Notes: generated by a model not told the origin, from the sequence alone. A stretch of DNA of 64,000 nucleotides from an uncultured Chloroflexia bacterium (GCA_963721655.1 CAVRKH010000008.1:1026-65025); one strand, 5' to 3'. Counted from the stretch's first letter, positions 4,342 through 21,231 are shown. Made by a program: numbers and translations.

Positions 4342-4369
4342 CGACCCGGTGCTAGACTGCGTTGCCTGT

Positions 4370-4446
4370 CGGGGCGTGGCGCAGTCTGGTAGCGCACCAG
4401 TCTGGGGGACTGGTGGTCGTGGGTTCGAATCCCGCCGCCCCGACCA
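4370..4446 (+). tRNA. tRNA-Pro (anticodon GGG), CCA encoded
   Basis: Hand-folded cloverleaf: acceptor CGGGGCG/CGCCCCG, D stem GCGC/GCGC, anticodon stem CCAGT/ACTGG with loop CTGGGGG, T arm GTGGG-TTCGAAT-CCCGC. Confidence 0.9.
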
Positions 4447-4614
4447 AATTCCCCTCACGAAATGGCACTCGGAGGGCGGAGTGTGCCAGCGCGCATGCAG
4501 CGGCGAGGACGGACAACGCGATGCCGAGGGTGACGGGCCGCAGCACGGCGTCATCCTCGCACGCCGATGAGGTGCTCGAAGAAGCAGGCCTGCCCTCGCG
4601 TGAGCACCGCCTGC

Positions 4615-5331
4615 TTACGTCGTCCGCAAGTTCATACCCGCCAAAATGGTCACTGCGAGTGCCACGACCGGCGGCCCCACCATGGCGAAGGCCAGCGCGA
4701 CTTCCTCCGCGTGGTGGCGGTAGCGACGGATTGGCAACGTAAGACGGAGTCCCGCCTGCGCCAAGAAGAGACCCGAAACCCAGCCGACGACCGCACCCGC
4801 GAAGGCCGCTCCGACCGCGGCAGGGAACGCCGTAACTCCCGTCGCGACGAGCACGATAAGACCGACGATGGCTCCGATGGGTGCGGACAGGAATGTGAAG
4901 CACATCGAAGCCTGTCCAAGGCCAGGGTCGGTGCCCAGGGCCTGCCACCGAAACTGGTGCTCACCTGGGGGGCCGATCCGAGCCAGTGCGCCATTCACGT
5001 CCTGAATGAGCACCGACCGGTCCGCGGTCGATCGCACGACCCACTTCTTGCCGAGCCCGACGCGATCGGTTTGATCAAAGTTCACGACCCAGCCATCCGC
5101 CGTGAGACTTGGGACCACGTCCTTGTCGGACGTCGTGATCCCGAACCCAATGACGTACCCGTCCCGGACAGCGCCGTGCACGAAAATTGCCGCCGTTGGA
5201 GCCCTGGCAGCAGCCCTGGCAGTCGTGGCAGCGAGATTTGGCGTGATATCCCATGCCGTGCCACCGCGCCGTTCGACCTCGCTCAGGGCGGCTTCAAGTG
5301 AAGAGATTCCCGGGCCGTTCGCCGTGTTCAT
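4615..5331 (-). CDS. hypothetical protein with soluble N-domain and C-terminal transmembrane segments
   Basis: ORF 4615..5337, likely ATG at 5331 (MNTANGPG..). C-terminal hydrophobic runs (IGAIVGLIVLVATGV, VVGWVSGLFLA, VGPPVVALAVTILAG). Confidence 0.55.
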   Translation of the reverse strand: MNTANGPGISSLEAALSEVERRGGTAWDITPNLAATTARAAARAPTAAIFVHGAVRDGYVIGFGITTSDKDVVPSLTADGWVVNFDQTDRVGLGKKWVVRSTADRSVLIQDVNGALARIGPPGEHQFRWQALGTDPGLGQASMCFTFLSAPIGAIVGLIVLVATGVTAFPAAVGAAFAGAVVGWVSGLFLAQAGLRLTLPIRRYRHHAEEVALAFAMVGPPVVALAVTILAGMNLRTT

Positions 5332-5372
5332 CCCCAACGGCCTCGGCTCCTCCAGCCGGGGCCGTACCTATC
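5329..5372 (+). repeat. intergenic hairpin repeat, copy 1 (left-hand part only)
   Basis: CATCCCCAACGGCCTCGGCTCCTCCAGCCGGGGCCGTACC. Matches the reverse complement of 9289-9328 with one mismatch. Confidence 0.8.
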
Positions 5373-5425
5373 CCTCGGCTTATCGGCCCGACCGCCCGAG
5401 GCCGCGCGTTAAACTAACGCAGTAG

Positions 5426-5539
5426 GGCGAGTGACCTATTGCTGTCGCCGTCGTCTGACGCCGAGGATTGACGAGCTTCCTCCGCACCGGGGAACACAAA
5501 GAGCCGACGTACCCCAGGACGTCGGCTCTTTCGTTTGTG
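5426..5539 (+). repeat. ~115-nt module, left copy of an inverted pair: 17-nt perfect tip plus long hairpin
   Basis: GGCGAGTGACCTATTGC at 5426-5442 is the exact reverse complement of 7825-7841. Hairpin AAAGAGCCGACGT/ACGTCGGCTCTTT at 5498-5531. The spacer is roughly 60 percent similar to its partner by eye. Confidence 0.75.
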
Positions 5540-5574
5540 GCCGTGGAGGCCCCCCGGACAATCACCGCCGGGGG

Positions 5575-5760
5575 ATGATGGTCTCGCCCGAGGGACCCGA
5601 TAGTCATATCGTCGCGACTGGTCAACCGTTAGGCTGCGACATGTCGAAACCCCATCGCGTTCACCCCCCTCGGGCCGCGATAGGGTCTCACTCTTACAAC
5701 GATCCCGCCGCCGATTCGTTAGGCACAATGCGGCGACACCCTGCAGACGGCCCCCCCTGA
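5575..5760 (+). CDS. possible small ORF (61 codons) directly behind a conserved hairpin
   Basis: Hairpin CCCCCCGGACAATCACCGCCGGGGG (5550-5574) abuts ATGATG. No recognisable family and weak coding look. Confidence 0.2.
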   Translation: MMVSPEGPDSHIVATGQPLGCDMSKPHRVHPPRAAIGSHSYNDPAADSLGTMRRHPADGPP

Positions 5761-6200
5761 CTTGCCGTCGCGCAGGGCCTCGGGGAGGTTAGGTCAGCGG
5801 CAGACAGTGCGCAGTACTGCGAGATGCACGGCGACACTGCGACTACGTGTCGATTTCGCACCTACGGACTTGCCGCACGCCGGACAACGAGGGTGAACAT
5901 GCCGCCGCCTTCGCTCGCATCAGGGACCGATCGAGGGGTCGCGGGTACGGAGTCAACTTGATGCACGACGGATGCATCCACTTGTCTGGATGGAGGGTGA
6001 CTACTCGCGGATCGGTGGCGGACAGACCGGCGTCGACGGCGCCGCGGAGCGACGCTTCACGTCCTGGAGACGGGTGGCCACACGCGCGGGATCACGCTCG
6101 CCAGCGATCCGTCGACGTTCGATGCCCGGAACGCGGAACGCCGACAATGCTAGACTCGATCACCTTCGAGTAGCCAACGGTTCGCCGTTCGGTGAGCCAC

Positions 6201-6295
6201 GGCCCGACCCACGGTCGGGGCCGTACCCTGTCCGCCATGACCGAACCCGCGAAGCGTGAGCGTGCCGCGCTCGACGTCTTGGAGCTCTTCCCGGA
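6201..6295 (+). repeat. intergenic hairpin plus mini-ORF repeat, copy 2
   Basis: GGCCCGACCCACGGTCGGGGCC-GTACCCTGTCCGCC-ATGACCGAACCCGCGAAGCGTGAGCGTGCCGCGCTCGACGTC... The mini-ORF is 49 codons (ATG 6237). Confidence 0.8.
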
Positions 6296-6443
6296 ATGGA
6301 CTCAATCCCAGCGAGCGCCGCGGCCTGCACAACCTGACCGACTGACTCGGCCGCTGACGGCCGACGAGGAGGGGCGGGTTACCTAGCGATACGCCGGCTG
6401 ACGGGATAGACCTTTCCATTGGACTGGTACTCGGCCGCCTCGG

Positions 6444-6776
6444 TCAGGGGCGGAATTCCTTGCCATGGTCGAACACGTAGAGGCCCACCCGGGTGATGTT
6501 GTGCAGGTCGCGCTCCTTGACCGCGTCCGTGCTGCAGACCTGGGTGATCGCCTTCAAGTAGGCGGGGGCGAGTTCCTCGATTTCTTTCGCCCTGACGTCC
6601 GCGATCCGGAGGGTCGCCAAGAGGCGGTCCGCCATAGCGAGGCGCTGTGGCTCGGTCATCTCCCCGGCCCATTGCTCACAGGTCGTCTGGTTGGAACTAT
6701 GTGGCCAGCCAGCGGTGATCGCGCTGACGTCGCACCCAACGAGCACGACTGCGAGCACGGCGATGAGTCGCTTCAT
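6444..6776 (-). CDS. lipoprotein, function unknown
   Basis: ORF 6444..6776. MKRLIAVLAVVLVGC is a signal peptide with lipobox. Confidence 0.6.
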   Translation of the reverse strand: MKRLIAVLAVVLVGCDVSAITAGWPHSSNQTTCEQWAGEMTEPQRLAMADRLLATLRIADVRAKEIEELAPAYLKAITQVCSTDAVKERDLHNITRVGLYVFDHGKEFRP

Positions 6777-7038
6777 CTCCGGAACATCCTGAAGCGCCCC
6801 TCCTCTGATTGTGCGCAGCTTGTTGGACGGACGTTACTCCCGCACTGCGCAGGCGAGGCTCCGCGAGAAGTCCCGCCTGCCGACGTCCCGGGTCTCCCTT
6901 TCCGCGCGAGGTCGATGTAGCGTTCCTGTCGTCAAACCAAACCAAGGAGGTCCCGATGTCAAGGTCACCGGCGCGGAGGGCCGGCCTTCGGACCGGCCCT
7001 CCTTTTTCTCCACCCCATCCATTACTGAGGGCTACCCC

Positions 7039-7465
7039 ATGCGCACCCGGCTTTTTGCCGCTCCGTTCGCGCTCTTTCTCCTGCTGACCTCGGTCGGCAT
7101 CGCCGCCGCGGACACCGTTCCGCTCAGAGGCAAACCTGTCCATCGTCGTCACCTCGGCCACGGTTCAGGTGCAGACGGGCGTCGTTACCGTCACAGGTCA
7201 GATCACGTGCGAGGTCGCCCTCTACGACCTCAGCGCGTCGGTCGATATCTCGAAGGGACGCGTCAGTGGTTCCGGCGACGACATTGGGCTGAGCTGCGCC
7301 GCGGGCGAGACGGTCCCGTTCACGACCTCCTTCTCCGCTGACTCCGGTCGGTTCTCCCCCGGTCCGGTGGAGATGGGCCTTGAGGCCCAAGGTGTGGGTC
7401 ACGGTCAGCGCTATGGCTTTGTAACCGAGGGGCTGAACTCGATCGTTCTCGAACCCACTCGCTAG
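7039..7465 (+). pseudogene. secreted protein, signal peptide out of frame with mature part
   Basis: MRTRLFAAPFALFLLLTSVGIAAADTVP is in the frame of ORF 6811..7341. The mature-looking part (..SEANLSIVVTSATVQVQTGVVTVTGQITCE..) is in the frame of ORF 7169..7465, which is open from 7088. Frame change near 7110-7125. Confidence 0.45.
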
Positions 7466-7721
7466 CCGATCTGTAGAGCCAACAGGAGGGTCGGTCAGCG
7501 GCCGGCCCTTCCGCGGCTTGAGACTGCTCCTCGGCAGCAGGCCACACCAAACCGGCAGGCCAATCGTTACTGGGATGGAGGCCCGCCGGTGCGGCGTTGG
7601 GGGGATACGTCGCAACGCGGGGCTCGATACCCTACGCCGCCGTGCAATACCTACTGACCCGGGCACCGCCTCGCGACGCGCTCCTGCACCTCCGCCACCG
7701 CCGGCGGGCCCTCGGGACAGA

Positions 7722-7841
7722 CAAAGAGCCGACGGTCCCAGGGGGGCTAGACCCGTCGACTCTTTGAGTTTTCCGCCCTGGGGGGCCAAGGCTTCGCGAT
7801 CGTGGGCGTAGAACAGCATTCAGCGCAATAGGTCACTCGCC
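7722..7841 (-). repeat. ~115-nt module, right (inverted) copy
   Basis: Hairpin CAAAGAGCCGACGG/CCGTCGACTCTTTG (7722-7766), then the 17-nt tip GCAATAGGTCACTCGCC (7825-7841). Confidence 0.75.
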
Positions 7842-7996
7842 GTATCCAAATGGCGTCGTGATCCCGCGCCTCCGGGGTCGAAGCTGGTGGGTCCATGTGC
7901 GCTGTGGCGGGCCCGCGCGGTCCGTGCCTCCCCCCAGAGGCCGATCGCGCACGGGCCCCTACCCGAGGCCGACAACCGAAACGCACGTCGTGGGCA

Positions 7997-8164
7997 TTAC
8001 GGCCGTCGAGACCCCCGGCAGGAGCCATCGTCAGCCGACTCGGGTTCGCTGCGGATCATCCGAAACACGCATTTCTTCGGGCGGACCGGCACAGCCTCCG
8101 CCGGAGCCAAATCCAAACGGCAGCGGCATTCGTTGAAGCTTAGGAGAACCCCCGGGCAAGCCAT
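7997..8164 (-). CDS. possible small Cys-rich ORF (55 codons) behind the same conserved hairpin
   Basis: Minus strand reads CCCCGGGCAATCACCGCCGGGG-TAACG-ATG (8191-8162). Peptide is MACPGVLLSFNECRCRLD..KKCVFRM..SC. The stretch is locally AT-richer. Confidence 0.25.
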   Translation of the reverse strand: MACPGVLLSFNECRCRLDLAPAEAVPVRPKKCVFRMIRSEPESADDGSCRGSRRP

Positions 8165-8226
8165 CGTTACCCCGGCGGTGATTGCCCGGGGACTCGCTCG
8201 TGCCTTGGCGCGATCGCCGACCCGGC

Positions 8227-8322
8227 TCAACGATCCGGGAGGAGCTCGATGACGTCGAGGGCGGCACGCTCACGCTTCGCGAGGTCGGTCATGGCGGACA
8301 GGGTACGGCCAGGCGTCTCGGA
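8227..8322 (-). repeat. intergenic hairpin plus mini-ORF repeat, copy 3 (inverted)
   Basis: Minus strand reads GGCCGTACCCTGTCCGCC-ATGACCGACCTCGCGAAGCGTGAGCGTGCCGCCCTCGACGTC... The mini-ORF is 21 codons (8292..8227). Confidence 0.8.
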
Positions 8323-8662
8323 GTGAAGTTGGGCCAGATGGGGCTACTCCGGCGAGGCGGGCGGCGGGCTCAAATTGGGTGAATCCCTTCGGCTTGAAGG
8401 TCCCAATGATCGCCTCCGACTCAGGCTCATAGGTCGCGACCGTTTCGGGCAAGCTCTGGAACAGACAAACCATGAGCATGTCGTCTGCCGCGAACGCGTA
8501 CGCGACGGCGGCCTGCTCCGTTCCCCCGTCGCCCTCCCAGTCCCAGCGGATTTGGACGGTTTCTCCGAGGGGCAACGAGATGTGGTCGGAGACCGGCGTC
8601 GTCGTGATGTTGGGAGCGCGCGCGATCGCGTCGACGTTCTCTTGTTCAAGGGAGAAGAGCAC
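8270..8662 (-). CDS. hypothetical protein whose last ~17 codons and stop codon lie inside repeat copy 3
   Basis: ORF 8270..8662 (GTG start overlapping the upstream stop region). The body looks coding (..QIRWDWEGDGGTEQAAVAYAF..). The tail ..WPYPVRHDRPREA* is repeat-encoded. Confidence 0.5.
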   Translation of the reverse strand: MLFSLEQENVDAIARAPNITTTPVSDHISLPLGETVQIRWDWEGDGGTEQAAVAYAFAADDMLMVCLFQSLPETVATYEPESEAIIGTFKPKGFTQFEPAARLAGVAPSGPTSLRDAWPYPVRHDRPREA

Positions 8663-8663
8663 G

Positions 8664-9044
8664 TCAGCGCGGGACGCCCGCCCGTATCCGCCTGGCTGCG
8701 GCCAACGAACGGCTTGATGCGGTCACCGGCGCGCACGTGGACCGCCCGAATTCACCAGTCAGCCAGCTAGCGACCCAATCGGCGAGGCGCTCGGCCTCCT
8801 GTCGGTCGGTCTTGCCGACTTCGTCGAGGTAAGCCGCCCAGCCGGCTCCGTCGCCGGTCACGTAGGTCCATCCCTCCGGGAACGCGAAGGTGTACGGAAC
8901 GTCGCCCGGGAACGGCTGGGGCGTAGACGGCGCAGCCGAGCCGGTCGTCGCGGAACACGCTGCTCCGAATACGATCGCAACCAGAGCGAGCGCCATACCG
9001 ACGCGGATCACGGGAAGCGCAAGCTGAACGCGACCTCGCCCCAT
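8664..9044 (-). CDS. lipoprotein, function unknown
   Basis: In-frame ATG at 9044 within ORF 8664..9212. MGRGRVQLALPVIRVGMALALVAIVFGAACS carries a lipobox. Confidence 0.55.
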   Translation of the reverse strand: MGRGRVQLALPVIRVGMALALVAIVFGAACSATTGSAAPSTPQPFPGDVPYTFAFPEGWTYVTGDGAGWAAYLDEVGKTDRQEAERLADWVASWLTGEFGRSTCAPVTASSRSLAAARRIRAGVPR

Positions 9045-9288
9045 TTGGCAACCACCCTTCTGAGCCCGCACGCCTGTCAACCAAGAGGTCCGGTCCCGCA
9101 ATTGGCCCAGAACGACGGCGACTGTGACGGGACGCCACGCTCCCTCGGGTTCGCGCCGCCCCACGCGCTCCCTGTGCCCTCCCCTTGGTCGCGGAAGTAT
9201 CGCCATCGGCACGGTCAGGTGCGTCGTTCATCTGACGTAATTCGTTCGGCGGTCATCCTCGTAGGCCGGTGGACAAGGGCATGGAAAG

Positions 9289-9328
9289 GGTACGGCCCCG
9301 GCTGGAGGAGCCGGGGCCGTTGGGGATG
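9289..9328 (-). repeat. intergenic hairpin repeat, copy 4 (inverted partner of copy 1)
   Basis: Plus strand reads GGTACGGCCCCGGCTGGAGGAGCCGGGGCCGTTGGGG-ATG. The ATG (9326) opens a 40-codon ORF. Confidence 0.8.
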
Positions 9329-9621
9329 AGTCTGAGAAGGAGAAGGCTCATTCCCGTGACGACATCCTGGTCGACCCGCGAGCGAGTTTCCACGCCTGAA
9401 CCGCGCAGACCCGCGCGCCGTTTCTTGCTGCCTTTGAGCAACTCGTGACCCCGAACCGAAGCTGGCATCGCCCGTTGGTGTGCGGCTTGGCTTCGGCCAG
9501 TTGGATAGTTCCGGGGACAGTGTTCGGCCCCGCCTGCTGGGACCGGTCGTGGTGAGATCGAGATGGACCTCGCAGAGCTGGAGGCCGAGACGCTCGACTA
9601 CGACCAGCGGGTGCTTGAGTT

Positions 9622-9700
9622 CGGTGCAGGCACCTAGTGGCACCACCTTGGCCGTCTGGGGACTGGTGGTCGTGGGTTCGAATCCCGCTGCCCCGACCAA
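9622..9700 (+). pseudogene. tRNA-Pro remnant: 3' half near-identical to 4400-4447, 5' half degenerate
   Basis: 9654-9700 equals 4400-4447 apart from one G deletion and one C>T. The anticodon stem cannot pair (GCCGT vs ACTGG) and the D arm is not foldable. Confidence 0.75.
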
Positions 9701-9800
9701 TTTATCCCGCTCGAATTTGACCACTCAATGGCCGGAGTGTGTTCCGAAGCGGGAGATCGCGCGCGTGTTTTGCGCCGGAACCGTGTGCAACAGCCGGCGT

Positions 9801-11702
9801 TCAGGGGGCGAGGCGCTGGTAGGAGGCGGTTCCGAAGTGTGAGATCTCGGTCGTGACCGGCTGGAGCTGCCCGGATGGGTCGAACTCGATGATGGTGTTC
9901 TCGTTGGCATTGGGACCCTTGTCAGCGTCCGCGAACGCCAGGCCGAGCAGGCGGGCGCCATCGGGCGACCAGAGCAGCTGGTACGGACTCAACCGGGGAC
10001 CGGGAACGGGGCGCGCGTTCGAGCCGTCGGCATCGGCGACCATGAAGAACGCGTTGGCATAGGAGGTGTCTGGATTCCGAACATATGCGAGGCGCGTGCC
10101 GTCCGGCGACCAGGCCACGCCATTCTCATCCTCGGCGCTGTTCGAGACGTTGCGGAGGTTCCTTCCGTCTGCGTCGACGACGTGCACGTCGCGCAGGTCG
10201 CCGACACCCCGCGCCAGGAACGCGAGCCGCCGACCGTCCGCCGACCATGTGGGCTGCGCGCCCCCGCCCGGGTTCGACCTCGAGTGACCGGACATCGTCT
10301 GTACCCGTGAGTCCCAGATATCGGGCGCAGCCTCGTGGGCGTTCGATCCATCGACATTGATGACCCACAGCGAGTCGAGCGCTTCGCCGCAACAAGTCGT
10401 CCGGTGAAAGGCGATTTGGCGGCTGTCCGGAGACCAGGCCGGATCGCCCCCGAACACGTCCGGCCCGCCGAGCCGCACCGCGCCGGGGTCGTCGATCGCG
10501 CCGATGAGGATCTGCCGTTCCTCCTCGCCGACCGGCCGAGCCGCGACCGCGACGTGACGGCTGTCCGGCGACCAGGCGATCGGACTGTTTTCGGCGAGCC
10601 CTTCGATCACTTGGACGCGCTCGCCACCGTCGGCCGGCATCACGAACACGTCGAACGAGAAGTCCGGCTGCTGCGATTCGAAGGCGATCAGCGTCCCGTC
10701 CGGGGAGTAGGCGGGGAGGGCCTCGAACTCGGGCCCCGAGGTCAGCTGGACCAGCCCTGAGCCGTCGGGGTTCGACGCGAACAGGTCGCCGTTCGCGTCG
10801 AAGGCGATCAGGCCCGGCTTCGCGAGACCGAACGGAGGTGCGGGCCTGCGCGACGAGCCGATCACTGCCAGCACCGTCGCAAGCGCGATCAACAGCAGGA
10901 CGACGGTCACCACTGCGACGACCCTCGGGCTGAGGCTCGCGCGGTTCACCAACCGCCGCGGCCGCCACCGATCGGCGACGAGCAGGCGCGGCCGCTGCCG
11001 GGTCGACTCGACGCCAGCCAGCGCGGCTTCGAGCAGCCCGTCCGGGGCCCGGCCGACGGCCTGCTCGTCGAAGTAGACCCGGAAGTCGCGGTCGAGGTCG
11101 CGCTGGGTGGTCATCGCATCGCTCCCGTCGCGAATCCGCTCGCTGCGGCGTACGTCGGCGTCCAGCTCCGCGCGCATCGCGGCCGTGGCGCGATGGAGGC
11201 GCGACTTGTAGGTGCCGGTCGGGATGTCGAGCATCCGGGCCGCCTCGTCGTCCGACAACTCGAGGTAGTGGTGGGCCACGAGCACCGCTCGGTGCTCGGC
11301 GCTCAGGCCGCGAAATGCCCGGTGGATCGCGTCCCGCGTCTCGAGTGTCCGCGCCGGGTCCGGCGCGCTGTCCTCGACCGCCGGCAGGATCTGTCGCAAC
11401 GCGACCTGCCGCCGCTCGCGCCCGGCCGCCCGGTAGACGCAGCGGACGAGCACCCGGTCGAGCCAGGCCCGGAAGCTGTCCGGGTCGCGGAGCGAGCGCA
11501 GGTCGCGCCACGCCGCGATCAGGGCCTCCTGGACGGCGTCCGAGGCAAGGTCGGGGTCCGCGAGCATGAGCTGCGCGAGGTTGTAGAGCTGGCCGATCGA
11601 CGCGGCCGCCAGGACGCCGAAGGCGTCCCGGTCGCCTCGTTGTGCCCGCTCCACCAGATCCCGCTGCACGCTCGCAATTGCCTCCGGCCTGCTGCTCCGC
11701 AC
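9801..11702 (-). CDS. single ORF joining an ECF sigma-70 factor, a linker, one TM helix and a TolB-like PD40 beta-propeller
   Basis: Uninterrupted 633-codon ORF. Sigma regions 2 and 4 are present (AVQEALIAAWRDLRSLRDPDSFRAWLDRVLV.. IPTGTYKSRLHRA). Internal Met at 11114. TM segment VVAVVTVVLLLIALATVLAVI. PD40 blades (YSPDG.., WSPDS.., WSADG..). Likely start GTG 11669 or 11702. Confidence 0.75.
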   Translation of the reverse strand: MRSSRPEAIASVQRDLVERAQRGDRDAFGVLAAASIGQLYNLAQLMLADPDLASDAVQEALIAAWRDLRSLRDPDSFRAWLDRVLVRCVYRAAGRERRQVALRQILPAVEDSAPDPARTLETRDAIHRAFRGLSAEHRAVLVAHHYLELSDDEAARMLDIPTGTYKSRLHRATAAMRAELDADVRRSERIRDGSDAMTTQRDLDRDFRVYFDEQAVGRAPDGLLEAALAGVESTRQRPRLLVADRWRPRRLVNRASLSPRVVAVVTVVLLLIALATVLAVIGSSRRPAPPFGLAKPGLIAFDANGDLFASNPDGSGLVQLTSGPEFEALPAYSPDGTLIAFESQQPDFSFDVFVMPADGGERVQVIEGLAENSPIAWSPDSRHVAVAARPVGEEERQILIGAIDDPGAVRLGGPDVFGGDPAWSPDSRQIAFHRTTCCGEALDSLWVINVDGSNAHEAAPDIWDSRVQTMSGHSRSNPGGGAQPTWSADGRRLAFLARGVGDLRDVHVVDADGRNLRNVSNSAEDENGVAWSPDGTRLAYVRNPDTSYANAFFMVADADGSNARPVPGPRLSPYQLLWSPDGARLLGLAFADADKGPNANENTIIEFDPSGQLQPVTTEISHFGTASYQRLAP

Positions 11703-11732
11703 GATAGGGGACGCGAATACCGCTTTCGTTCC
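11701..11732 (-). promoter_or_regulatory. candidate ECF-type promoter upstream of the sigma ORF
   Basis: Minus strand reads GGAACGAA-N15-CCCTAT about 30 nt upstream of GTG 11669. Same bipartite spacing as the two plus-strand copies. Confidence 0.35.
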
Positions 11733-11740
11733 ATTTTCTG

Positions 11741-11828
11741 GGCCGGGCGCTGGCGGCGGCGTCCAGTGGAACGAATCGACCCCACGTCATCCCTATAGGT
11801 CGGCAACGGGCCGCCGACGATGGAGCGA
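11741..11828 (+). promoter_or_regulatory. ~88-nt direct repeat copy 1, containing GGAACGAA-N15-CCCTAT and a GTCGGC/GCCGAC hairpin
   Basis: Near-identical to 12349-12433. GGAAC is at 11768-11772. Confidence 0.45.
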
Positions 11829-11839
11829 CGGCAGCGGCC

Positions 11840-12338
11840 AGCACGAGATCGGCGACCTGCCCTATGGCGATCCGAACGTGTCACCCGACGGCGAGCACGC
11901 TGCTGATGCTCGGCTTCGCAGGACGACGACGAGCGCCAGCAGGCGCTCGTCACGGCCAGCATGTCGGGGGGCGACGTCGAGCGGATCACGTCGTTCGCGC
12001 TCGACGCCGCGGGCAAGAGCGACTGGGCGCCGGACCGTCGCCGCGTCACGACGAGCGACAACGCGAACATCCCCGAGCTGTCAGCCAACGTTGTCACGGT
12101 GCCGGCCGACGGCGGCGAGCCGTTCCATGTCACCGAGTACAGCGACCCCGCCGTTCGGGCGTACGTCGGCGGCTACTCGCCGGATGGCAACTGGATCGTG
12201 TTCCGCCTCGAAGACCACGGACAGCACGCCCTGTGCCTGGTGCGTCCTGACGGCACGGGGCTGCGCACGATCATGCCCCTCTCGGACTTCCGGCCCCGAG
12301 GGATCGACTGGGGTCCCCCCGCCGTGCGATCGAAATAG
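11840..12338 (+). pseudogene. PD40 beta-propeller fragment (C-terminal remnant, several frame changes)
   Basis: PNVSPDGEH.. is in the frame of ORF 11878, and LLMLGFAG in the frame of ORF 11864. The rest is ORF 11961..12338 (YSPDGNWIVFRLED..LVRPDGTGL). No intact N-terminus. Confidence 0.4.
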
Positions 12339-12348
12339 ACCTCGGCGC

Positions 12349-12433
12349 GGGCCGGGCGTCGGCGCGTCGAGTGGAACGAATCGACCCGACGTCGTCCCTA
12401 TAGGTCGGCAGCGGGCCGCCGACGATGGAGCGA
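12349..12433 (+). promoter_or_regulatory. ~88-nt direct repeat copy 2, about 80 nt upstream of the 12514 gene
   Basis: GGAAC at 12373-12377, CCCTAT 15 nt later. The sequence is otherwise almost identical to copy 1. Confidence 0.45.
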
Positions 12434-12513
12434 GCCCTCGCCTGAACCTCGAGGGAGTCGACGATGGGGATCAAACGCCGAGCCGCGCATGGGTTGATCT
12501 GGAGGGATCCGTC

Positions 12514-13467: not shown

Positions 13468-13554
13468 AAGACACACTCCGCGCAGGCGACGGCCACCCCC
13501 GACCGTCGCCTGAGCGCCCGGGCGGCGGCCAATGTAGCCGTCAGGCTTGAAATC

Positions 13555-13665
13555 GGCCCCGGCCCACGGTCGGGGCCGTTACCCTGTCCACCCTGACCGA
13601 CCCGGCGAAACGCGAGCGCGCTGTCCTCGAGGTGCTCGGACGACTCCCGGATCGTTTCGGCCGTC
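13555..13665 (+). repeat. intergenic hairpin plus mini-ORF repeat, copy 5 (ATG replaced by CTG)
   Basis: GGCCCCGGCCCACGGTCGGGGCC-GTTACCCTGTCCACC-CTGACCGACCCGGCGAAACGCGAGCGCGCTGTCCTCGAGGTG..CTCCCGGATCGTT. Confidence 0.75.
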
Positions 13666-13873
13666 GGCCCGACTTTCTACGATCCCGGGACGCGCCGCTG
13701 GTCGGCGACGTGAGGACGGGGGCGGCCCTGGGCCTTGTCGCCGGGTGGAAAATGGGGCCAAGGAACGACCGTGATCGATCGACGATGATCGGAGTCGTCG
13801 TCGACGCGCTGGGGCCTACTCGGACGTCCTGCTCCCGGCCGTCCCGTCCGTGCGCCTCGAGGAGGGTAGCCGC

Positions 13874-14344
13874 ATGGGCCGCATCCACCACGAGTACCAC
13901 ATCGATGCTCCGCCCGAAGTCGCCTGGGCGCTCGGGCGCGACGCCAATCGGATACCCGAGTGGAATACGACCACGGTGTCGGTCAAGGACGTGAGCGGGC
14001 CGCTCGACCGCCAAGGCGCCACGTACACCGCGGTCTCGAAGATCGCCGGCCGGCCCCTCGAGGTCCAGTGGCAGGTCAAGCAGGTCGACCCAGGCCGCAT
14101 GGCGGAGGTGACGGCGAGCTCGCCCAGAGGAGGGAGTGCCCACCTGATCGTCCGCTACGAACCCGATGGTTCGGGCACGAAGTTCAGCATGGATCTCGAC
14201 TACGAGCTGCCAATGGGGTTCCTCGGCGATGTCGCGGACAAGCTCTTCGCGGAGCGGTCGATGACCCGGGACGTGCAGCACTCGGGCGAGAACTTCAAGG
14301 CGCTCGTCGAAGAGGCGGCGATGGTCCCGACCACATCCGGCTGA
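13874..14344 (+). CDS. SRPBCC (START/polyketide cyclase-like) family protein
   Basis: ATG 13874 after GGAGGG. MGRIHHEYHIDAPPEVAWALGRDANRIPEWN.. is typical of the SRPBCC N-terminus. Confidence 0.7.
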   Translation: MGRIHHEYHIDAPPEVAWALGRDANRIPEWNTTTVSVKDVSGPLDRQGATYTAVSKIAGRPLEVQWQVKQVDPGRMAEVTASSPRGGSAHLIVRYEPDGSGTKFSMDLDYELPMGFLGDVADKLFAERSMTRDVQHSGENFKALVEEAAMVPTTSG

Positions 14345-14492
14345 AGCTCCACCTCCACCCCGTCCAGCTAACGCCCTGGTTCCGTCCGGCCAGACCGCTC
14401 GACACGCGATCGTGCGGGGCCACTCATTCGGGCCCCCGTTACGGCGTCCTGCAGCTCGCTATGCTCAAACGATGTAGCTCGAGGTCCGTGCA

Positions 14493-15047
14493 ATGGGCTG
14501 GCGAGACAAGCTTCTGGGTAAGCAGCCCAGCTTCCCGCACGACGCACCTGACCTGGAGGCGACGATGCCGAGCAGCGTTGCCGGCCGGACGTTGGTCACA
14601 TGGTCAGTTTCAGGCGACCGCTTCTGGGCCAACCTTGACCGACAGGGTGGTGGTCGCCTCCGGTCGGCCCTCGGTCCTGAACTCGACGATGCCGGGTTGC
14701 CGCCAGATTCGATCGCGATGGCCGTCGCGGGTCGCGAGGACAAGAGCCATCCGCCATCCATTGTCTGGGCTATGCGCTTCGGAGAGGAGAGGGCCGCTGC
14801 CTTGCCCGCGCCTGCGACCGCACTCGCGATGGAAGTCATGCACGTCGATGCCAACCAGGGCGCGAATTGGCAGGACGCCATCGTCGCCGACAAGGCGGTT
14901 CTCGTGGGCCATCACAAGATGGTCCGCCAAGACCAACATCACCGCGGGAAGCCCTACGTCTACCTTGGTGGGTGGGCCTTGTACGCTCTCATCGCCGACG
15001 ACGAGGCATGGGCGGCTGAGGTGATTCGACACTTGCCAGCATCCTGA
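14493..15047 (+). CDS. hypothetical protein
   Basis: ORF 14493..15047 with a protein-like composition. No family recognised. Confidence 0.5.
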   Translation: MGWRDKLLGKQPSFPHDAPDLEATMPSSVAGRTLVTWSVSGDRFWANLDRQGGGRLRSALGPELDDAGLPPDSIAMAVAGREDKSHPPSIVWAMRFGEERAAALPAPATALAMEVMHVDANQGANWQDAIVADKAVLVGHHKMVRQDQHHRGKPYVYLGGWALYALIADDEAWAAEVIRHLPAS

Positions 15048-15199
15048 AGCCAATCACGCGGCGACCCATGACCGACCAGCGAACCGAGAGCGTGTCTCGC
15101 TCGACTGCGCCCTCGGGAACGCCTCACGGACGGCTCACGAAGGCGGCTTAGCCAAGGCAAGCCAGCGGTGAGTGGACCCTTCCGCTACGACCGGCGCCG

Positions 15200-15997
15200 C
15201 TAAGCGCGGGCGGGCGCGGACGCGGCGACCGCGTCCCGGGCGGTGAGGACGAGCGGGCCGTCGGCGGTGATCGCCACGGTGTGCTCGACGTGGACGCCCC
15301 GCGACCGGTCCACCGATCGGATCGTCCAGCCGTCGCGGTCGATGACGATCTTCGGGCTGCCCGCCAGGAACCAGGGCTCGATCGCGATGACGAGCCCGGG
15401 CTGCAATGCGAGGCCGCGCCCCGCGACCCCGTCGTTCGGGACGTTCGGCGGCTCGTGCATCACCCGCCCGACTCCGTGCCCGCCGAACGCGGTGTTGACC
15501 TGGTAGCCCGCGCCCCGGATCACGCCGCCGACGGCCGCCGAGACGTCGCCCAGCCGGTTGCCTGGCTGCGCGGCGGCGATCCCCGCGGCGAGCGCCCGCT
15601 CAGCGGTCTCGACCTGACTCAGGTCCTCGTCGCGTGGCGTCCCGACCGGAATCGTGATCGAGGAGTCGGCGACCCAGCCGTCGACCTCCGCGGCGAAGTC
15701 GAGGCTGACGAGGTCCCCGTCCCGCAGCCGCCGGTCGTGCGGCAGCCCGTGGAGCACCGCGTCGTTGATCGAGACGCAGAGCACCTTGCCGAACGGCATC
15801 GCGCCGAACGAGGGGTGGTAGTCGATGTAGCAGCTCGTCGCGCGGCGCTCGCGGATCATCGCGTGCGCGATCCGGTCAAGCTCCAGCGCGTTGATGCCGA
15901 CCCGGGTCCGCTCGGCGAGCTCCATGAGCACCGCCGCGACGAACCGGCCGGCGGGTCGCATCGCCTCGATCTCGGCGCGGCTCCGAAGCTCGATCAC
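15200..15997 (-). CDS. map: type I methionine aminopeptidase
   Basis: ORF 15200..15997. Motifs: DGDLVSLDF, GHGVGRVMHEPPNVPN, IAIEPW, HVEHTVAIT. Confidence 0.9.
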   Translation of the reverse strand: MIELRSRAEIEAMRPAGRFVAAVLMELAERTRVGINALELDRIAHAMIRERRATSCYIDYHPSFGAMPFGKVLCVSINDAVLHGLPHDRRLRDGDLVSLDFAAEVDGWVADSSITIPVGTPRDEDLSQVETAERALAAGIAAAQPGNRLGDVSAAVGGVIRGAGYQVNTAFGGHGVGRVMHEPPNVPNDGVAGRGLALQPGLVIAIEPWFLAGSPKIVIDRDGWTIRSVDRSRGVHVEHTVAITADGPLVLTARDAVAASAPARA

Positions 15998-16073
15998 GCG
16001 CTGATCGTAGGGCTTCGATGTCAGTCGGTCGGCAATGGACCTTCGCGCCCGAGGGCTCAGTGTCCTTGGCGGC

Positions 16074-16565
16074 TCATCCGCGAGGTCGACCGGGCCAGGG
16101 GATGAGCCGTCGGGTCCGCGCCCGGTACGCCGCGTAGTCCGGGAAGCGCTGCTCGAGCCAGGCCTCCTCGCGCACGGACTTCACGAGCAAGAAGGCCGCG
16201 AGCGCCACGGCGAGGGCGACAGCGACGATCGACGCTTGGCCGATCGCCCAGCCGAATGCTGCGAGAATGAGCCCGCCGTAGATCGGGTGGCGAACGAACG
16301 AGTACGCGCCCGTTTCAACGAGGGCGGCACCGTCGCGTGGCTTGGGAAGCGGCGTGAATGCGCCTCTGAGGTCGATGGCTCCACGGACGGCGAGGACGAT
16401 GCCACCGGCGATCAGCACGATCCCGACGACGATGCCCGCGAGGCGCAGCGTCCCGGACCAGTCCGGCCCGAGCGACCAGCCAGCGGCCGCGACGACGACG
16501 AGCAATACGCCCTGGATGAGGACCCATCCCTCCCCACGCGGGCCGAGCGACGGCAGATGCGTCAT
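16074..16565 (-). CDS. isoprenylcysteine carboxyl methyltransferase (ICMT/PEMT-like) family membrane protein
   Basis: Polytopic ORF with FVRHPIYGG..EEAWLEQRFPDYAAY. Confidence 0.75.
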   Translation of the reverse strand: MTHLPSLGPRGEGWVLIQGVLLVVVAAAGWSLGPDWSGTLRLAGIVVGIVLIAGGIVLAVRGAIDLRGAFTPLPKPRDGAALVETGAYSFVRHPIYGGLILAAFGWAIGQASIVAVALAVALAAFLLVKSVREEAWLEQRFPDYAAYRARTRRLIPWPGRPRG

Positions 16566-16766
16566 CCATGGATGCTAGGCGCCCGACGGCCAGCCGCGCG
16601 CCTATCGACGTTGCGTGATCTCCGGCGCCCTTGACGGGCGTCGGAACGGTGCTAGCGTCGGCAGTCGGGGCCAGAGACGGAGCCCGCGACGGCACCGAAC
16701 GCGCTGGCCCTACCGGCCTGCTTCCGGAGCGACAACCGGGAGCGGCGTCGAGGAGGAGGCGCTGGC

Positions 16767-17348
16767 TTGGACGACTCTCAAATCCGGCCAATCTCCGTCC
16801 ACGCATTCCCCACGTCGGATCGTGTCTTCAAGGAGCGCGTTCGCGAAGTTGGCGCAGAGATGCGCGACTCGCCGGCATCCGCGGTCATTGAAGCCCTGGA
16901 GCGGCGCCTTCGTCCGATCCACCCGAACCTGACCGTCCAGCTTCGCGACGACCTGGCAGGTCCGGACTACAGCTCGACCGTCTACGTGTTCCGGGATGGC
17001 GCGGTTCACGACGGGCTCGGACCCGAGTCCTGGACCGAGGAGGCCACCACGGTCCGCGTTGTAACGGATGCGGATGGGCAGTACGTCGAGGCCAACGACG
17101 CTGCGGGTCGCCTGTTCGGTGTGCCGCCGCCTGAGATCCTGGGTCGACGAGCCGGCGAGTTCACACGGCCCGACGCGCGGATCAAGGACGCAGCGGCGCT
17201 ATGGGACGTGCTGCGTTCCACCGGTCGGCTCAACAGCCTGGCCGTTGTCATGCGGCCGGACCAGACGGAGACGCGCGTGGAGTTCCTGACCATCCGCGAT
17301 GGAGACGGCCCGGGCCGGAATGTCACCTACCTTCGAGCCATCGATTAG
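16767..17348 (+). CDS. PAS-domain protein
   Basis: TTG start after GAGGAGGAGG. PAS-like core VVTDADGQYVEANDAAGRLFGVPPPEILGRRAGEF. Confidence 0.55.
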   Translation: MDDSQIRPISVHAFPTSDRVFKERVREVGAEMRDSPASAVIEALERRLRPIHPNLTVQLRDDLAGPDYSSTVYVFRDGAVHDGLGPESWTEEATTVRVVTDADGQYVEANDAAGRLFGVPPPEILGRRAGEFTRPDARIKDAAALWDVLRSTGRLNSLAVVMRPDQTETRVEFLTIRDGDGPGRNVTYLRAID

Positions 17349-17448
17349 TCGGAGCGACGATTGCTCGAAGGCAGCAGCCTTCAGGGCGCGGTTCTGCTTG
17401 GCTGATGCGTTCGAATTCGCACCCAGGTCGATCAGGCTCTATGCACGG

Positions 17449-17523
17449 TCCCGGCTCTCCCCCAGCCGGGGCCGTACTCTGTCCCCCGAGACCGACCCCG
17501 CGAAGCGCGAGCTGCGGCGTTGA
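17449..17523 (+). repeat. intergenic hairpin plus mini-ORF repeat, copy 6 (truncated, ATG replaced by GAG)
   Basis: CCCGGCTCTCCCCCAGCCGGGGCC-GTACTCTGTCCCCC-GAGACCGACCCCGCGAAGCGCGAGC, then divergence. Confidence 0.75.
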
Positions 17524-17907
17524 CGCAGTACAAGCTCCTCAATGCTCTTGCGATCACCGTCGGCTTCGTCCTCGCGGGCTGCTTCGCGAGATTCCGCAGT
17601 CGGTCCCTGCACCCTTCAGATCGAGGCCAATGAGAATGGGCACCGCGTCCTGGAGCCGCCCTACAGTGTTCGCCTGGGACCGGGCAGCGACCCCACCGTC
17701 CTGTACGTCTCCGGGACAGGCTGGATGCAAGCGAGCATCGTCTTCCGACATAGCTCTGGCTACGAGAACAGCTGGCAGCTAACTCGGCACGACATCACCG
17801 GGAACACCACGGGCTTCCCTGTCAACCGGCCCGGGCAGTGGCAGGTTCGAATGTCCGACCCGGTCAGCGGGTGTGTGCAAGAGTTTGCCGTCGAGGTAGT
17901 TGAATGA
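17520..17907 (+). pseudogene. small lipoprotein, lipobox out of frame with mature part
   Basis: TTG 17520 frame gives LTQYKLLNALAITVGFVLAGC. The mature part is ORF 17542..17907 (..DSAVGPCTLQIEANENG..). Frame change near 17585-17600. Confidence 0.45.
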
Positions 17908-17960
17908 CCGACCCCGCGAAGCGCAGGCGTGCCATTGCCCGGCGACGCAGTTCTCCCGAG
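17904..17960 (+). repeat. intergenic mini-ORF repeat, copy 7 (no hairpin)
   Basis: ATGACCGACCCCGCGAAGCGCAGGCGTGCC... The ATG 17904 overlaps the TGA 17905-17907 of the upstream gene. The mini-ORF is 48 codons. Confidence 0.75.
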
Positions 17961-18204
17961 GCCGTCCGCCGCAACGCGTATTGGCGGATGTTCGGGATGC
18001 GGCCTCGCGTTCCTCGCATTGGGCGTGGCGATCATTTCATGGCGTCCTGATCCGCAGGGTTCGCAACGCTCGAACGAGCGTCCGTGGCGACGAGTGACCT
18101 TGTTGCCCTGGCCTCACACCCCCGGGTTCGCTAGCTCCCCGGCGAGGATGCTGTACGATTCCCGTCCTTCACGGGGAAGAATCGCGCCGAGCTGGAGGAC
18201 CCCA

Positions 18205-20057
18205 ATGTCCAGCCTTCGTGACCGCACATCTCGCTTCGGCGTCCTGGCGGCCCTTGGTGCCACGTTCGCTCTTGGCGCGTCGACCGTGCTGGCGTCGTCG
18301 CCAGGCGTCGACGTTCGGCTCTCGAACGACTTCCCGGACGGCGGCTACGTGAGCGCCGACGACATCGCCGGGCTTCCGCATTACTCCGACGACACGCTCG
18401 ACGAATGCTCGCGCGCCCGAGGGCGCCAGAACGAACCCGCCCTCGCGATCAATCCGCGCGACAGCCGGGTCATGATCGGATCCGCGAACGATTACTGCGG
18501 AACGTTCAACGACGGCGATGACGACGACGGAGCGCCAATCGCGTCCGGCCCCATCTGGCTCGGCTACTACCGCTCCGAGAACGCGGGCGAATCCTTCGTC
18601 AGCTCGCTGGTCCCGGGATATCCGGGCGACACGTCGACCCTGGGCCAGTTGGCCAGGATTCGAACGGCGAGCGCCGGCGATCCAGTCGCCGCGTGGGACG
18701 CCGACGGCCGCGTGTTCATGGGCGCCGAATCGAGCGACGACCCCGCCGGCTCGAAGAAGACGTTCGGCGACGAGTGGGTCGCCAGATACGTCAATCCCGA
18801 CGGACCCGATGGCGACACCATCAACGACGGCAGCCGCTTCGCCGGCTCGGTCGTGGTCGCCAAGGGGTCCTCCGCGCCGAACCTGCTCGGCAAGTTCCAC
18901 GACAAGACGGCGATCGAAGCCGACCGCACGGACACCTCGTGCCGCGGCAACGTGTACTTCGCGTGGTCGCGCTTCACGGGCAACGGCGACACGGCGGGTG
19001 GGCATCTACTTTGTCCGCTCGACCGATCACGGCGTCACGTTCTCGCAGCCGATGAAGCTGACCGCTGGCGTGCACGACGTCCAGCTGCCCGAGATCTCGA
19101 TCACCGGCAACGGCCACGTGTACGTGACCTACCGACAAATCGAGGACAGCGGCCACCAGGTCGACAGCGTCGGGGTCGTGAAGTCGACCGACTGCGGCAA
19201 GACCTTCTCGAGGCCGGCGACGATCACGAACGTCGCCGCCATGGGCCTGACCGACGCCCTGCTCGGGGGCGGCAACGCCCGCGACTGCGGGGACGGGGTC
19301 GGGACCGGCTGCGAGAGCGGGTACACCTTCTTCCGCGCCGACACCGGTCCGCGCGCCACCGCCGACCAGGCCGACACCAATCATGAATGGGTCTACGTGG
19401 CCTACGAGGCGATCGTCCCGGGCACGGAGGTCGACACGGGCACGACCTTCGGCTGGGCAGACGAGCAGGGTGCCGGTGGCCAGTCGGCCGTCTACTACGT
19501 TCGATACGACGGCGCGGCGAACACCCACACGACGCCTGAACGCATCTCGCCCATCAGTGACGGCCAGCAGCTGTACCCGGACCTCGCCGTCGACGACGGC
19601 GTCGTCCATGCGCTCTGGTGGGACACCCGAAACGACGCGAACAACGACGCCACGTCGATGCTCGTGCGACCGCCAGGCAACGACGCGGACGGCAACGTCG
19701 GGCCGTCGTTCGACGTGTACGCGGCCACCCGGCCCACGGACGGTGGCTCGTGGACATCCGACGTGCAACTGACCGACTTCACCTCCAATGGCCAGTGGGA
19801 GCAGTTCGGGGGCCGGACGGTCCCGTTCGGTGGCGACTACCTGCTGGATCGATTCGCAGGACGGCACGACGTTTGGGACGTGGACGGATTGGCGGAACAC
19901 GGTCCCCGGCACCGACCTTCGCGAGGAGGAGGAGGACGAGACCGGGGCGGACGTGCTCCAGTGTCGGTTCGACACGGGTGACGGCGTCATCTCCGGCGAC
20001 ACGTGTCCGCGAGACGGCGGGCTCGACCAGGACATCTACGGCGACGCCGCGCCGTAG
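18205..20057 (+). pseudogene. secreted BNR/Asp-box (sialidase-fold-like) protein, two frame changes
   Basis: Signal peptide MSSLRDRTSRFGVLAALGATFALGAS (ORF 17929 frame). Asp-boxes STDHGVTF and STDCGKTF (ORF 18518 frame). C-terminus lies in ORF 19788..20057. Breaks near 18985-18995 and 19840-19850. Confidence 0.6.
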
Positions 20058-20117
20058 TCACCGAGCTACGGATCGCTGAGGCCCGCAGCAGCACGGACGT
20101 TGCGTCGTTCACGGTTC

Positions 20118-20209
20118 TGGGCCGTGCCCTGTCCGCCATGACCGATGACGTGGCGAGGCGTGGGCGTGCCGCGCTCCAGGGTCTTTCTTCCGGGGTCGCG
20201 AGCGGCTAG
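20118..20209 (+). repeat. intergenic hairpin plus mini-ORF repeat, copy 8
   Basis: GGGCCGTGCCCTGTCCGCC-ATGACCGATGACGTGGCGAGGCGTGGGCGTGCCGCGCTCCAGGGTC... The mini-ORF is 23 codons (ATG 20138). Confidence 0.7.
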
Positions 20210-20354
20210 ACTTCCGCGACCCAGAGGAGGGCACCGGAGCCGCGCGGGGGACGTTTCCCAGCAGCGCGACAAGCCGTCACGGTCGCCGGTCGCGCTGGGC
20301 CAATGGCGAGACCGATCCTCGGGAGTTGGGCGTGCGCGCCCAGGGAGGTGTCAA

Positions 20355-20790
20355 GTGAAGCGCCTTTCATTGGTTCTCGGCGCCCTGCTGCTCGGGCTGT
20401 TCGTGGCTGCTCCGACCGGTCCAGGCTGCTCCGGCAGCGACGGCGTTTACCGGGGAATGGATCGGCGAGGATCCTGCGCCGCCCGACGGCGATGGCAGTA
20501 CCGTCCATCTCTTCGTCTCCGGGGGCGACCACCCGCGGGTCGAGTTCACCGACGAGTTCGGCACGGTCTGCGAGGACGTCGGGTCGCCCGTCACCGTCTT
20601 CTCGAGCATGCTTCGGGGATTCGTCGATGGCGACACGCTGTTCGCTCTGTTCAACGTCGCGAAGTGCGGTCCTGTGACGATCAAATTCCTGACCGGAGAG
20701 CAGGCGATCTGGACCCTCGACGACCAGGGGAATGCCGATCCAGCGGACGACACGCTCTTTGACGGAAGCGTCGTCTGGCATCGGGTGTAG
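20355..20790 (+). pseudogene. small lipoprotein, lipobox out of frame with mature part
   Basis: GTG 20355 after GGGAGG gives VKRLSLVLGALLLGLFVAAPTGPGC. The mature part (TGEWIGEDPAPPDGDGSTVHLFVSGG.. to ORF 20608..20790) is in another frame. Break near 20440-20450. Confidence 0.5.
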
Positions 20791-20842
20791 AGCCTCCTCG
20801 ACTCTCGGTCCCGGACTCGCGACCCCGGGTCGCGCGGCTCAC

Positions 20843-20885
20843 GGCCCCGGCTTCGGTCGGGGCCGTACCGCGTCGAAGCGCGTGA
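20843..20885 (+). repeat. intergenic hairpin repeat, copy 9 (internally deleted)
   Basis: GGCCCCGGCTTCGGTCGGGGCC-GTACC-GCGTCGAAGCGCGTGA. Confidence 0.65.
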
Positions 20886-21085
20886 CTACCCCAGGCAGCC
20901 TCGATGAGATCGAGCAGAAGCGCGAGGTGACGCTGCCCAGAGACGCCTCGCACTCGACCGGCAGCCGGATCGCCTGCCGCACCGTGCTCGAACGCAGCAA
21001 CATGTCGCGCGTCGGTCTGCATGGTTGATGTGTAGGAACCAGCTCCTGGATCGATCAGGCTGTCTGTATCCAGGAGGACGAGCAC

Positions 21086-21196: not shown

Positions 21197-21221
21197 GCCG
21201 CCGCTGGGAATCGCGGCGGCC
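21196..21221. terminator. GC-rich hairpin between convergent genes (terminator-like, no clear U-tract)
   Basis: GGCCGCCGC-TGGGAATC-GCGGCGGCC. Confidence 0.3.
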
Positions 21222-21231
21222 TTCGGGAGGG

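Follow-up and report, generated by a model that had tools for sequence, protein, structure and literature searches.

The question raised by the DNA considered here, a 64,000-nt stretch from an uncultured Chloroflexia bacterium (GCA_963721655.1 CAVRKH010000008.1:1026-65025; the window, meaning the whole of that stretch), is what kind of entity recurs between its genes as a short module comprising a GC-rich hairpin, a TACCCT-type box and the 'head' of a small open reading frame (ORF). In an initial annotation nine copies were described and assigned to a mobile or recombinogenic module resembling the mycobacterial interspersed repetitive units (MIRUs) and the repetitive extragenic palindromic (REP) elements. 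The head is, however, the 5' end of a multi-copy paralogous protein gene, here termed family A, i.e. an uncharacterized family of proteins of ~122 residues, represented by P0001, which start MTDPAKRERAALDVLELLPxxW... The copies are probably promoter-proximal remnants and chimeras of this decaying, multi-copy, lineage-specific family, together with its upstream stem-loop/promoter region, located in a scrambled accessory island.

The presence of the copies is well supported statistically. All nine positions hold what was described, and the absence of copies after 21 kb is borne out by an nhmmer profile built on the copies, which recovers six head-bearing copies in the window (E 5e-26 to 2e-14) and nothing past 21 kb; a tenth copy, at 15068-15112, had been missed. 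With up to three mismatches allowed, the core ACCGACCCNGCGAAGCGYGAGCG is found at 6240, 8267(-), 13596, 17491 and 17907, i.e. five times versus 0.02 expected, a number attained in none of 100 shuffles. By self-blastn, the main head-bearing copies are 82-92% identical over 55-77 nt (6219-6295 versus 8310-8234, 92%; 6210-6272 versus 20110-20176, 84%; 6203-6277 versus 13558-13633, 83%; 6208-6269 versus 17459-17519, 82%), the stump at 17904 is 87% identical over 30 nt (6237-6266 versus 17904-17933), and the inverted, hairpin-only copies are 98% identical (5328-5368 versus 9329-9289). The spacing between copies is 0.4-7 kb.

Many details of the initial annotation are likewise correct, including the mini-ORF lengths (49, 21, 48 and 23 codons), the replacement of ATG by CTG at 13593 and by GAG at 17488, the ATGA overlap at 17904, and the out-of-frame tail ..YPVRHDR(T/P)REA* common to two copies, which is the same DNA read in another frame. 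The proposed three-part organization stands in that the hairpin is genuine, recurrent and structured, but it does not extend to all copies, those at 5329 and 9289 having the hairpin and GTACC with no head; in the copy at 20843 the head is reduced to the scrap GTCGAAGCGCGTGA. The gene starts proposed on the opposite strand (GGAGGAG...ATG) are unsupported at both copies concerned: the relatives of ORF 4615-5337(-) align only over residues 82-234, with the top-scoring start at 5181, and the 59-codon ORF at 9269-9448 has in-frame stops in its paralogous copies.

An alignment of 15 copies, taken with 200 nt upstream and 240 nt downstream, shows that similarity sets in ~12 nt ahead of the ATG and extends as far as the stop codon; neither inverted termini nor shared flanks are seen. 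A back-translated peptide pattern, searched against 185,579 species genomes (one genome per species), detects the head in only three genomes, all of them related metagenome genomes, of which CAVVPT01 has at least 12 head copies on six contigs, six of them within 50 kb. An exact search of a collection of genome contigs for a 26-nt form of the module gave no match. In related Limnocylindria-like metagenome genomes (the loci of which are given L numbers), the hairpin, box and ATGACCGACCC head run on into an intact and strongly conserved ORF of ~122 residues, e.g. L084:3001-3366 in CAVVPT01, which encodes 121 residues. A search of 5.8 billion proteins identified 195 family-A clusters, mostly of 121-124 residues, all unnamed and none with a Pfam domain, and a profile search of 1.84 billion representatives gave 411 matches, among them many fragments as well as full-length but divergent members (32-48% identity). 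Differences at codon positions 1, 2 and 3 are distributed 78:124:384 among intact family-A genes, 28:25:103 between window heads and intact genes, and 7:8:26 among the window heads themselves; the third-position bias implies that the head sequence evolved as protein-coding DNA. The earlier proposal that DNA or RNA, rather than a protein, is conserved is thus contradicted both by this bias and by the intact members; the alternative, also raised at that stage, that the element corresponds to the 5' end of a gene, is what was found.

Every copy in the window is a remnant: it is cut short after 8-40 codons, has a frameshift or an internal deletion, or has been recombined onto another gene. Using tblastn with the full protein, the window copies cover only residues 1-21, 1-20, 1-39, 2-8 and 1-10, with E values of 6e-8 to 1e-5 for the heads that match residues 1-21, 1-20, and 1-26 plus 23-39, and with 7-10 residues matched for the remnants at 17491 and 17904. 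By residue ~40 at the latest, each window copy has met a stop or a frameshift or has ceased to be homologous, and the break points differ in every one. At 6237, codons 1-21 (6237-6299) are joined to a C-terminal remnant (..RPLTADEEGRVT*RY..), such that residues 1-21 match by tblastn and residues 105-121 match weakly; the DNA just 3' of the stop of this copy resembles the read-through tail of P0018. The head at 13593 comprises residues 1-26, a frameshift and residues 23-39, followed by unrelated DNA, the region 13555-13710 being 80% identical over 170 nt to L086/L090. The head of the minus-strand copy at 8230-8310 starts at 8292, and diverged scraps of head are present at 20138, 15068 and 20870. 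The copy at 20843 lies 50 nt 3' of a plus-strand gene ending at 20790, a homologue of which, in L095, is followed by a hairpin and then by a family-A gene. The related genomes have the same mix of intact, frameshifted and 5'- or 3'-truncated family-A copies; the apparent excess of 5' fragments there is biased, because the search patterns were N-terminal, a bias of which the window search is free.

Within soil Chloroflexota, family A itself is restricted to a narrow Limnocylindria-like clade. Its AlphaFold model (mean predicted local distance difference test score 91) comprises, in order, one helix, three strands, a second helix of 44 residues and a final short one, for which a Foldseek search against the PDB gave nothing at E <=0.001, with only weak resemblance to double-stranded-RNA-binding domains. 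No match was obtained in Pfam, NCBIfam, PHROGs or PADLOC, and the family was not found in viral contigs; PDB sequence-profile matches to designed Kelch-like repeats were rejected as spurious. With a single conserved histidine the family has no HUH motif, nor did Foldseek match it to TnpA. Seven genomic contexts revealed no constant partner gene; they vary, consisting mostly of hypothetical accessory genes, and include a restriction-modification gene, Tn7-like genes and two-component systems. A toxin-immunity role, considered on account of a weak GH-E nuclease match beside L084 (E 0.013), was rejected, as the other contexts do not repeat it.

The region preceding the head is also conserved. In ~20 instances from the window and related loci, the arrangement is ACGGCCCCGGC-loop-GCCGGGGCCGT, then ACCCTGTC(C/G)GCC, then ATG, with GC stems of 9-11 bp, loops of 4-9 nt, and hairpins of ~25-30 nt that have folding energies of -15 to about -22 kcal/mol (RNAfold). 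In an alignment of 18 copies, pairing in the 11-bp stem amounts to 94%, and each of the 13 cells that deviate is a G·U or U·G pair on the plus strand (A·C mismatches on the other strand), an asymmetry that suggests the stem matters in plus-strand RNA; the stem alignment includes one G-C to A-U change. At 13555, 17449 and 20843 the hairpins lie 50-100 nt after plus-strand genes. The TACCCT box fits TANNNT and is located 7-8 nt before the ATG at 6201, at 8227 and at many related loci, this spacing of TANNNT to ATG being constant before several different genes; there is no Shine-Dalgarno or GGAG-type motif. At L099:6001, L081 and L086 this hairpin and box accompany genes that are intact or nearly so, and hairpin-only copies are found at 5331, 9284 and L099:5930. 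An exact CGGGGCCGTACCCTKTC scan of the 185,579 species genomes yielded 112 stretches, of which 80 were listed; CAVVPT01 accounts for four of these and is the one source that recurs among them, the others being single chance matches in unrelated taxa. The stem-loop and box form a low-copy element separate from the head and are not a high-copy REP-like family; they are regarded here as the native upstream region of one family-A subgroup.

With respect to function, promoters for leaderless mRNAs in Actinobacteria and Deinococcus have a TANNNT -10 element about 6-8 nt before ATG or GTG. The box described here is similar in its position, in the lack of a Shine-Dalgarno motif and in its constant spacing; by contrast, the -35 region is here occupied by the stem-loop. 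We know of no demonstration of leaderless TANNNT promoters in Chloroflexota. Intrinsic terminators that lack a U-tract ('I-shaped' terminators) have been described for high-GC bacteria, and the stable GC stem-loop, located 50-100 nt 3' of a gene and followed by no T run, may be akin to these, although the same genome also has canonical T-tract terminators, e.g. at 6975-7002. The stem-loop may thus be a terminator or insulator abutting a leaderless-type promoter. In plus-strand RNA, the 9-11 bp GC stem would end or insulate the transcript of the preceding plus-strand gene, the TACCCT box would serve as a TANNNT-type -10 hexamer, and transcription would start at, or next to, the A of the ATG, so giving a leaderless mRNA.

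Three well-supported window genes, those for methionine aminopeptidase (15997), a PEMT/ICMT-like methyltransferase (16565) and a gene at 35793, have TAnnAT 6-7 nt before the first start codon and no Shine-Dalgarno motif, which suggests that leaderless mRNAs may occur in this Chloroflexota lineage. At L081:2040-2100, L085:2560-2620 and L086:2260-2310, in the related genome, the loop of the stem-loop contains an insertion of ~38 nt, GCGCGTTCGCTCCGTCGWGACAGCGAGACGGWCGGCGA, which is itself a hairpin and recurs upstream of riboswitch-like elements.

The setting of the copies is an accessory island. The window has a G+C content of 66-73%, and the housekeeping neighbors have 70-82% protein identity to metagenome genomes labeled uncultured Chloroflexia or Candidatus Limnocylindria; on these grounds an actinobacterial origin, which the G+C content had at first suggested, is rejected. 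From the tRNA-Pro gene (4370-4446) to ~21 kb the coding signal is weak, and the DNA is a mosaic of modules which recur in different order in CAVVPT01, i.e. the stem-loop, the head, a noncoding module of ~116 nt preceding hairpins, an RNA resembling the cyclic di-GMP-II (c-di-GMP-II) riboswitch, a lipoprotein-like gene with family A directly after it, the two joined by a conserved ATGA overlap, and a 1.9-kb segment (18152-20057) that is 89% identical to the related genome. The same gene pair, with the overlap, is found in L085; the ATGA at 17904 is the normal junction of this conserved two-gene pair. In respect of recombination the initial annotation was right, the region being a recombination patchwork. 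The copy at 17449 exemplifies this, as it is a chimera in which a stem-loop, a box and 22 nt of A-type head lie ~30 nt upstream of the lipoprotein-like gene. In the latter (17488-17907) GAG replaces ATG, and the reading frame seems to shift by +1 near 17575; the gene is a pseudogene, unless the shift is a sequencing error. Its relative in L218, the one locus that an exact metagenome scan for box plus head detected, has a clean hairpin, a box and a ATGACCGACCCC start, and that in L085 starts with GTG behind a different box, so that three relatives of one gene have three different 5' ends.

Table 1. Copies of the module in the window, and the associated lipoprotein-like gene.
Feature	Position	Strand	Evidence or relationship
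Stem-loop GGCCTCGGC-tcctcca-GCCGGGGCC, then GTACC; no head	5331-5372	+	RNAfold -19.5 kcal/mol
Stem-loop, GTACCCTGTCCGCC box, internally deleted family-A gene	6201-6400	+	tblastn
Box and family-A head, 21 codons then stop; hairpin lost	8230-8310	-	tblastn residues 1-20; 92% to 6219-6295
Stem-loop and GTACCCTTTCC box, without family-A head	9284-9326	-	RNAfold -22.5 kcal/mol
Stem-loop, box, family-A remnant with CTG for ATG	13555-13710	+	tblastn
Decayed head without hairpin, ATGACCGACCAGCGAACCGAGAGCGTGTCTCGCTCGAC	15068-15112	+	nhmmer E 0.0077
Stem-loop, TACTCT box, head of ~8 codons (GAG for ATG)	17449-17513	+	Core match; RNAfold
Lipoprotein-like gene, lipobox ..GFVLAGC	~17520-17907 (17488-17907 with head)	+	Homologous to L218:832-1254 and L085:2642-2998
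Family-A head, 10 codons; ATG overlaps TGA of lipoprotein-like gene (ATGA)	17904-17933	+	Core match
Degenerate hairpin, TGCCCT box, diverged head (MTDDVARRGRAAL..)	20100-20176	+	nhmmer E 3.5e-18; 84% to 6210-6272
Stem-loop, GTACC, head scrap (GCGTCGAAGCGCGTGA)	20843-20885	+	RNAfold -18.7 kcal/mol

Other components of the island can be noted. The c-di-GMP-II or c-di-GMP-II-GAG-like element is present in the window at 20240-20326 (+) and ~9078-9168 (-), the latter downstream of the copy at 9284-9326 on the same strand, and also at L081:2157-2245, L095:4313-4398, L098:981-1067, L099:9693-9783 and L099:7671-7756. Scores are just under the Rfam gathering thresholds (33.7-46.8 bits versus 40 or 53.5), identity between the two window copies is 72%, and a TAGACT or GATACT box is located ~7 nt upstream of every copy; the element may be a lineage-specific variant riboswitch located in the same variable islands. 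The conserved noncoding module (~80-116 nt), usually found before a stem-loop, is present at 17360-17440 (+), 9442-9366 (-) and 20978-21061 (+), as well as in L081, L090, L091, L095 and L099. Part of it folds as a small hairpin, TTGCYCRAAGGCRGCAA, within which a compensatory change turns U-A into C-G. The peptide that seems to be encoded on its opposite strand is broken by stops in certain copies, and the module could represent a small RNA or a 3' untranslated region. The 3' part of tRNA-Pro(GGG) plus ~40 nt downstream (4370-4485) is repeated 5.25 kb away, at 9654-9741 (83% over 89 nt, with a 46-nt core at 96%); these repeats flank an islet with four module copies, in the larger ORFs of which no integrase domain was found.

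Overall, the observations resemble what ordinary decay of genes, together with recombination, would produce in a variable island, and not a new mobile element. The island 3' of tRNA-Pro would have been assembled from a few modules, the same ones being scrambled in the related genome, and recombination between heads of 80-90% identity, together with deletions, would leave promoter-proximal stumps and occasional chimeras. Several observations weigh against this explanation, or against the role proposed for the upstream region. Covariation in the stem is unsupported (216 of 500 shuffles equal it), because the stem hardly varies; no U-tract follows the hairpin (GTACCCTG follows it), a terminator scan calls none of the copies, and consensus scans call no sigma-70 promoter at them. 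The window has 5' stumps and 3' remnants in a ratio of ~8:1, which random decay alone would not predict. The closest assemblies are long-read metagenome genomes, in which single frameshifts could be sequencing errors, and the lack of an intact copy holds for the 64 kb of the source genome covered here. Finally, hairpin, box and head also start unrelated genes, i.e. lipoprotein-like genes at L218:832 (MTDPALRKRLAALGIAAGFVLAGC) and L099:11424 (MTNPAKLAPAALLAITLLLGAC) and a membrane protein gene at L091:4510, and the 5' module may have a life of its own.

The last observation leads to the alternative of a portable 5' cassette, comprising hairpin, -10 box, ATG and the first 6-12 codons, that is grafted by recombination onto unrelated genes within variable islands of Limnocylindria-like Chloroflexota. 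Each gene so reached would gain a leaderless promoter with its start codon, a positively charged N terminus and, ahead of these, a terminator or insulator; the cassette would be kept because it is useful, and the stumps would be by-products of 5'-end swapping. The use of the same box and head by family A, by two unrelated lipoprotein-like genes and by the membrane protein, together with the differing 5' ends of the three lipoprotein-like relatives, means that recombination at the 5' module is real; the constant spacing of box to ATG and the large excess of 5' stumps in the window are as a cassette would predict. There is a precedent in the erp/ospE/ospF/elp lipoprotein families of Borrelia (the upstream homology box families), in which diverged genes share a promoter and the 5' end of the coding sequence. 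As there, a near-identical promoter region and signal-peptide start would be spread over unrelated or diverged genes by recombination among multi-copy loci; however, the phylum is different, the families here are chromosomal rather than plasmid-borne, and most copies are dead stumps. The cassette proposal is nevertheless rather unlikely, since the ATG is lost in several copies (CTG at 13593 and L101:4116, GAG at 17488, ATC at L084:2066 and L085:1175), some copies precede nothing usable, that at 6237 facing a convergent gene, and the break points are not shared. Part of the resemblance may also be coincidence, given that high-GC genomes commonly have starts of the type MT(D/E/N)P.

The proposal that the copies are a noncoding mobile element, like REP elements/bacterial interspersed mosaic elements (BIMEs) or like MIRUs or miniature inverted-repeat transposable elements (MITEs), spreading independently of any gene, is improbable and already largely refuted. 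It has in its favor a GC-rich palindrome followed by a short conserved motif, dispersal over several contigs of a related genome, the presence of both orientations in the window, and the hairpin-only copies. REP elements are noncoding, are present in hundreds of copies, are often clustered in alternating orientation, and are tied to REP-associated tyrosine transposases (RAYTs). The module resembles the REP/BIME elements of enterobacteria and pseudomonads in having a short, GC-rich, imperfect intergenic palindrome with a conserved flanking motif, and in probably acting at the RNA level as a 3' stem-loop after the upstream gene; by contrast, it is present in ~5-15 copies per genome and is joined to a gene start. 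Among 20 ORFs of the 64-kb window, no RAYT (Y1/HUH) transposase was matched by Pfam. Mycobacterial MIRUs are 46-100 bp tandem direct repeats (variable-number tandem repeats) inside operons. The intergenic location and the small ORF with an ATG that overlaps the upstream stop, as at 17904, are MIRU-like, but the copies here are dispersed singletons, and there is no general coupling to both flanking genes, since only the 17904 copy overlaps an upstream stop. The lack of terminal inverted repeats and shared flanks in the 15-copy alignment, with variable 3' break points, is unlike a MITE. More generally, the head is coding sequence of a real gene, Tandem Repeats Finder detects no array of the module at 4300-21500, the exact hairpin-box is present in only ~4-5 copies in the one related genome that has it (CAVVPT01, among the matches listed), and the module is absent from 80 syntenic loci of related species. 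In Rfam, only tRNAs score above the gathering threshold, nothing overlapping any copy even at E up to 1. Thus, the suggestion in the initial annotation of a MIRU/REP-like mobile module fails for want of tandem arrays, high copy number, discrete ends and fixed break points.

It is very improbable that the copies are attachment (att) or attC-like sites, each marking the junction of a separately acquired islet 3' of tRNA-Pro, although the region begins at that tRNA gene, 4400-4485 is repeated at 9654-9741, most copies are in the plus orientation, and hairpins follow genes as attC sites do. No integrase domain was found in any ORF tested; integron attC sites are at least 57 bp long and, with IntI, bound single-gene cassettes, whereas the hairpins here are ~25-30 nt, with perfect 9-11 bp GC stems and loops of 4-9 nt. 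In addition, the intervals hold several genes on both strands, including that for methionine aminopeptidase, and the copies are 70-92% identical rather than near-identical, with differing break points. Least probable of all is an assembly or sequencing artifact, in which intact genes were broken by indel errors, as, despite the long-read origin of the closest public relatives and the single frameshifts at 13655-13660, near 17575, and in L083 and L086, most window copies are without hundreds of bases of the gene, which indel errors cannot cause, and this explanation is already refuted for seven of the eight heads.

Two further sets of repeats in the window were observed. An 89-nt direct repeat (90% identity) is present at 11740-11828 and 12349-12433, ~600 nt apart, within or upstream of ORF 11878-13467. 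The stretches 11146-11577, 47442-47876 and 61512-61713 are 63-71% alike and also match loci in the related genome; the first sits in a sigma-70/PD40 β-propeller gene, 9801-11702(-), and the three are probably from a paralogous family of sigma-factor or propeller genes.

As family A illustrates, a striking 'intergenic repeat' can, in an uncultured lineage, consist of the debris left by paralogous genes; if this went unrecognized, annotation of the copies would yield spurious mini-ORFs or a new repeat family. The gene family is uncharacterized; the phenomenon itself is of a known kind. The work also provides sequence-level hints of leaderless-type promoters located behind stem-loops without U-tracts in this lineage, and the 5' end common to unrelated lipoprotein-like genes represents a small case of the exchange of promoters and gene starts by recombination. 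Family A emerges as a multi-copy family of proteins predicted to be well folded, with 411 representative clusters, that decays quickly in soil Chloroflexota.

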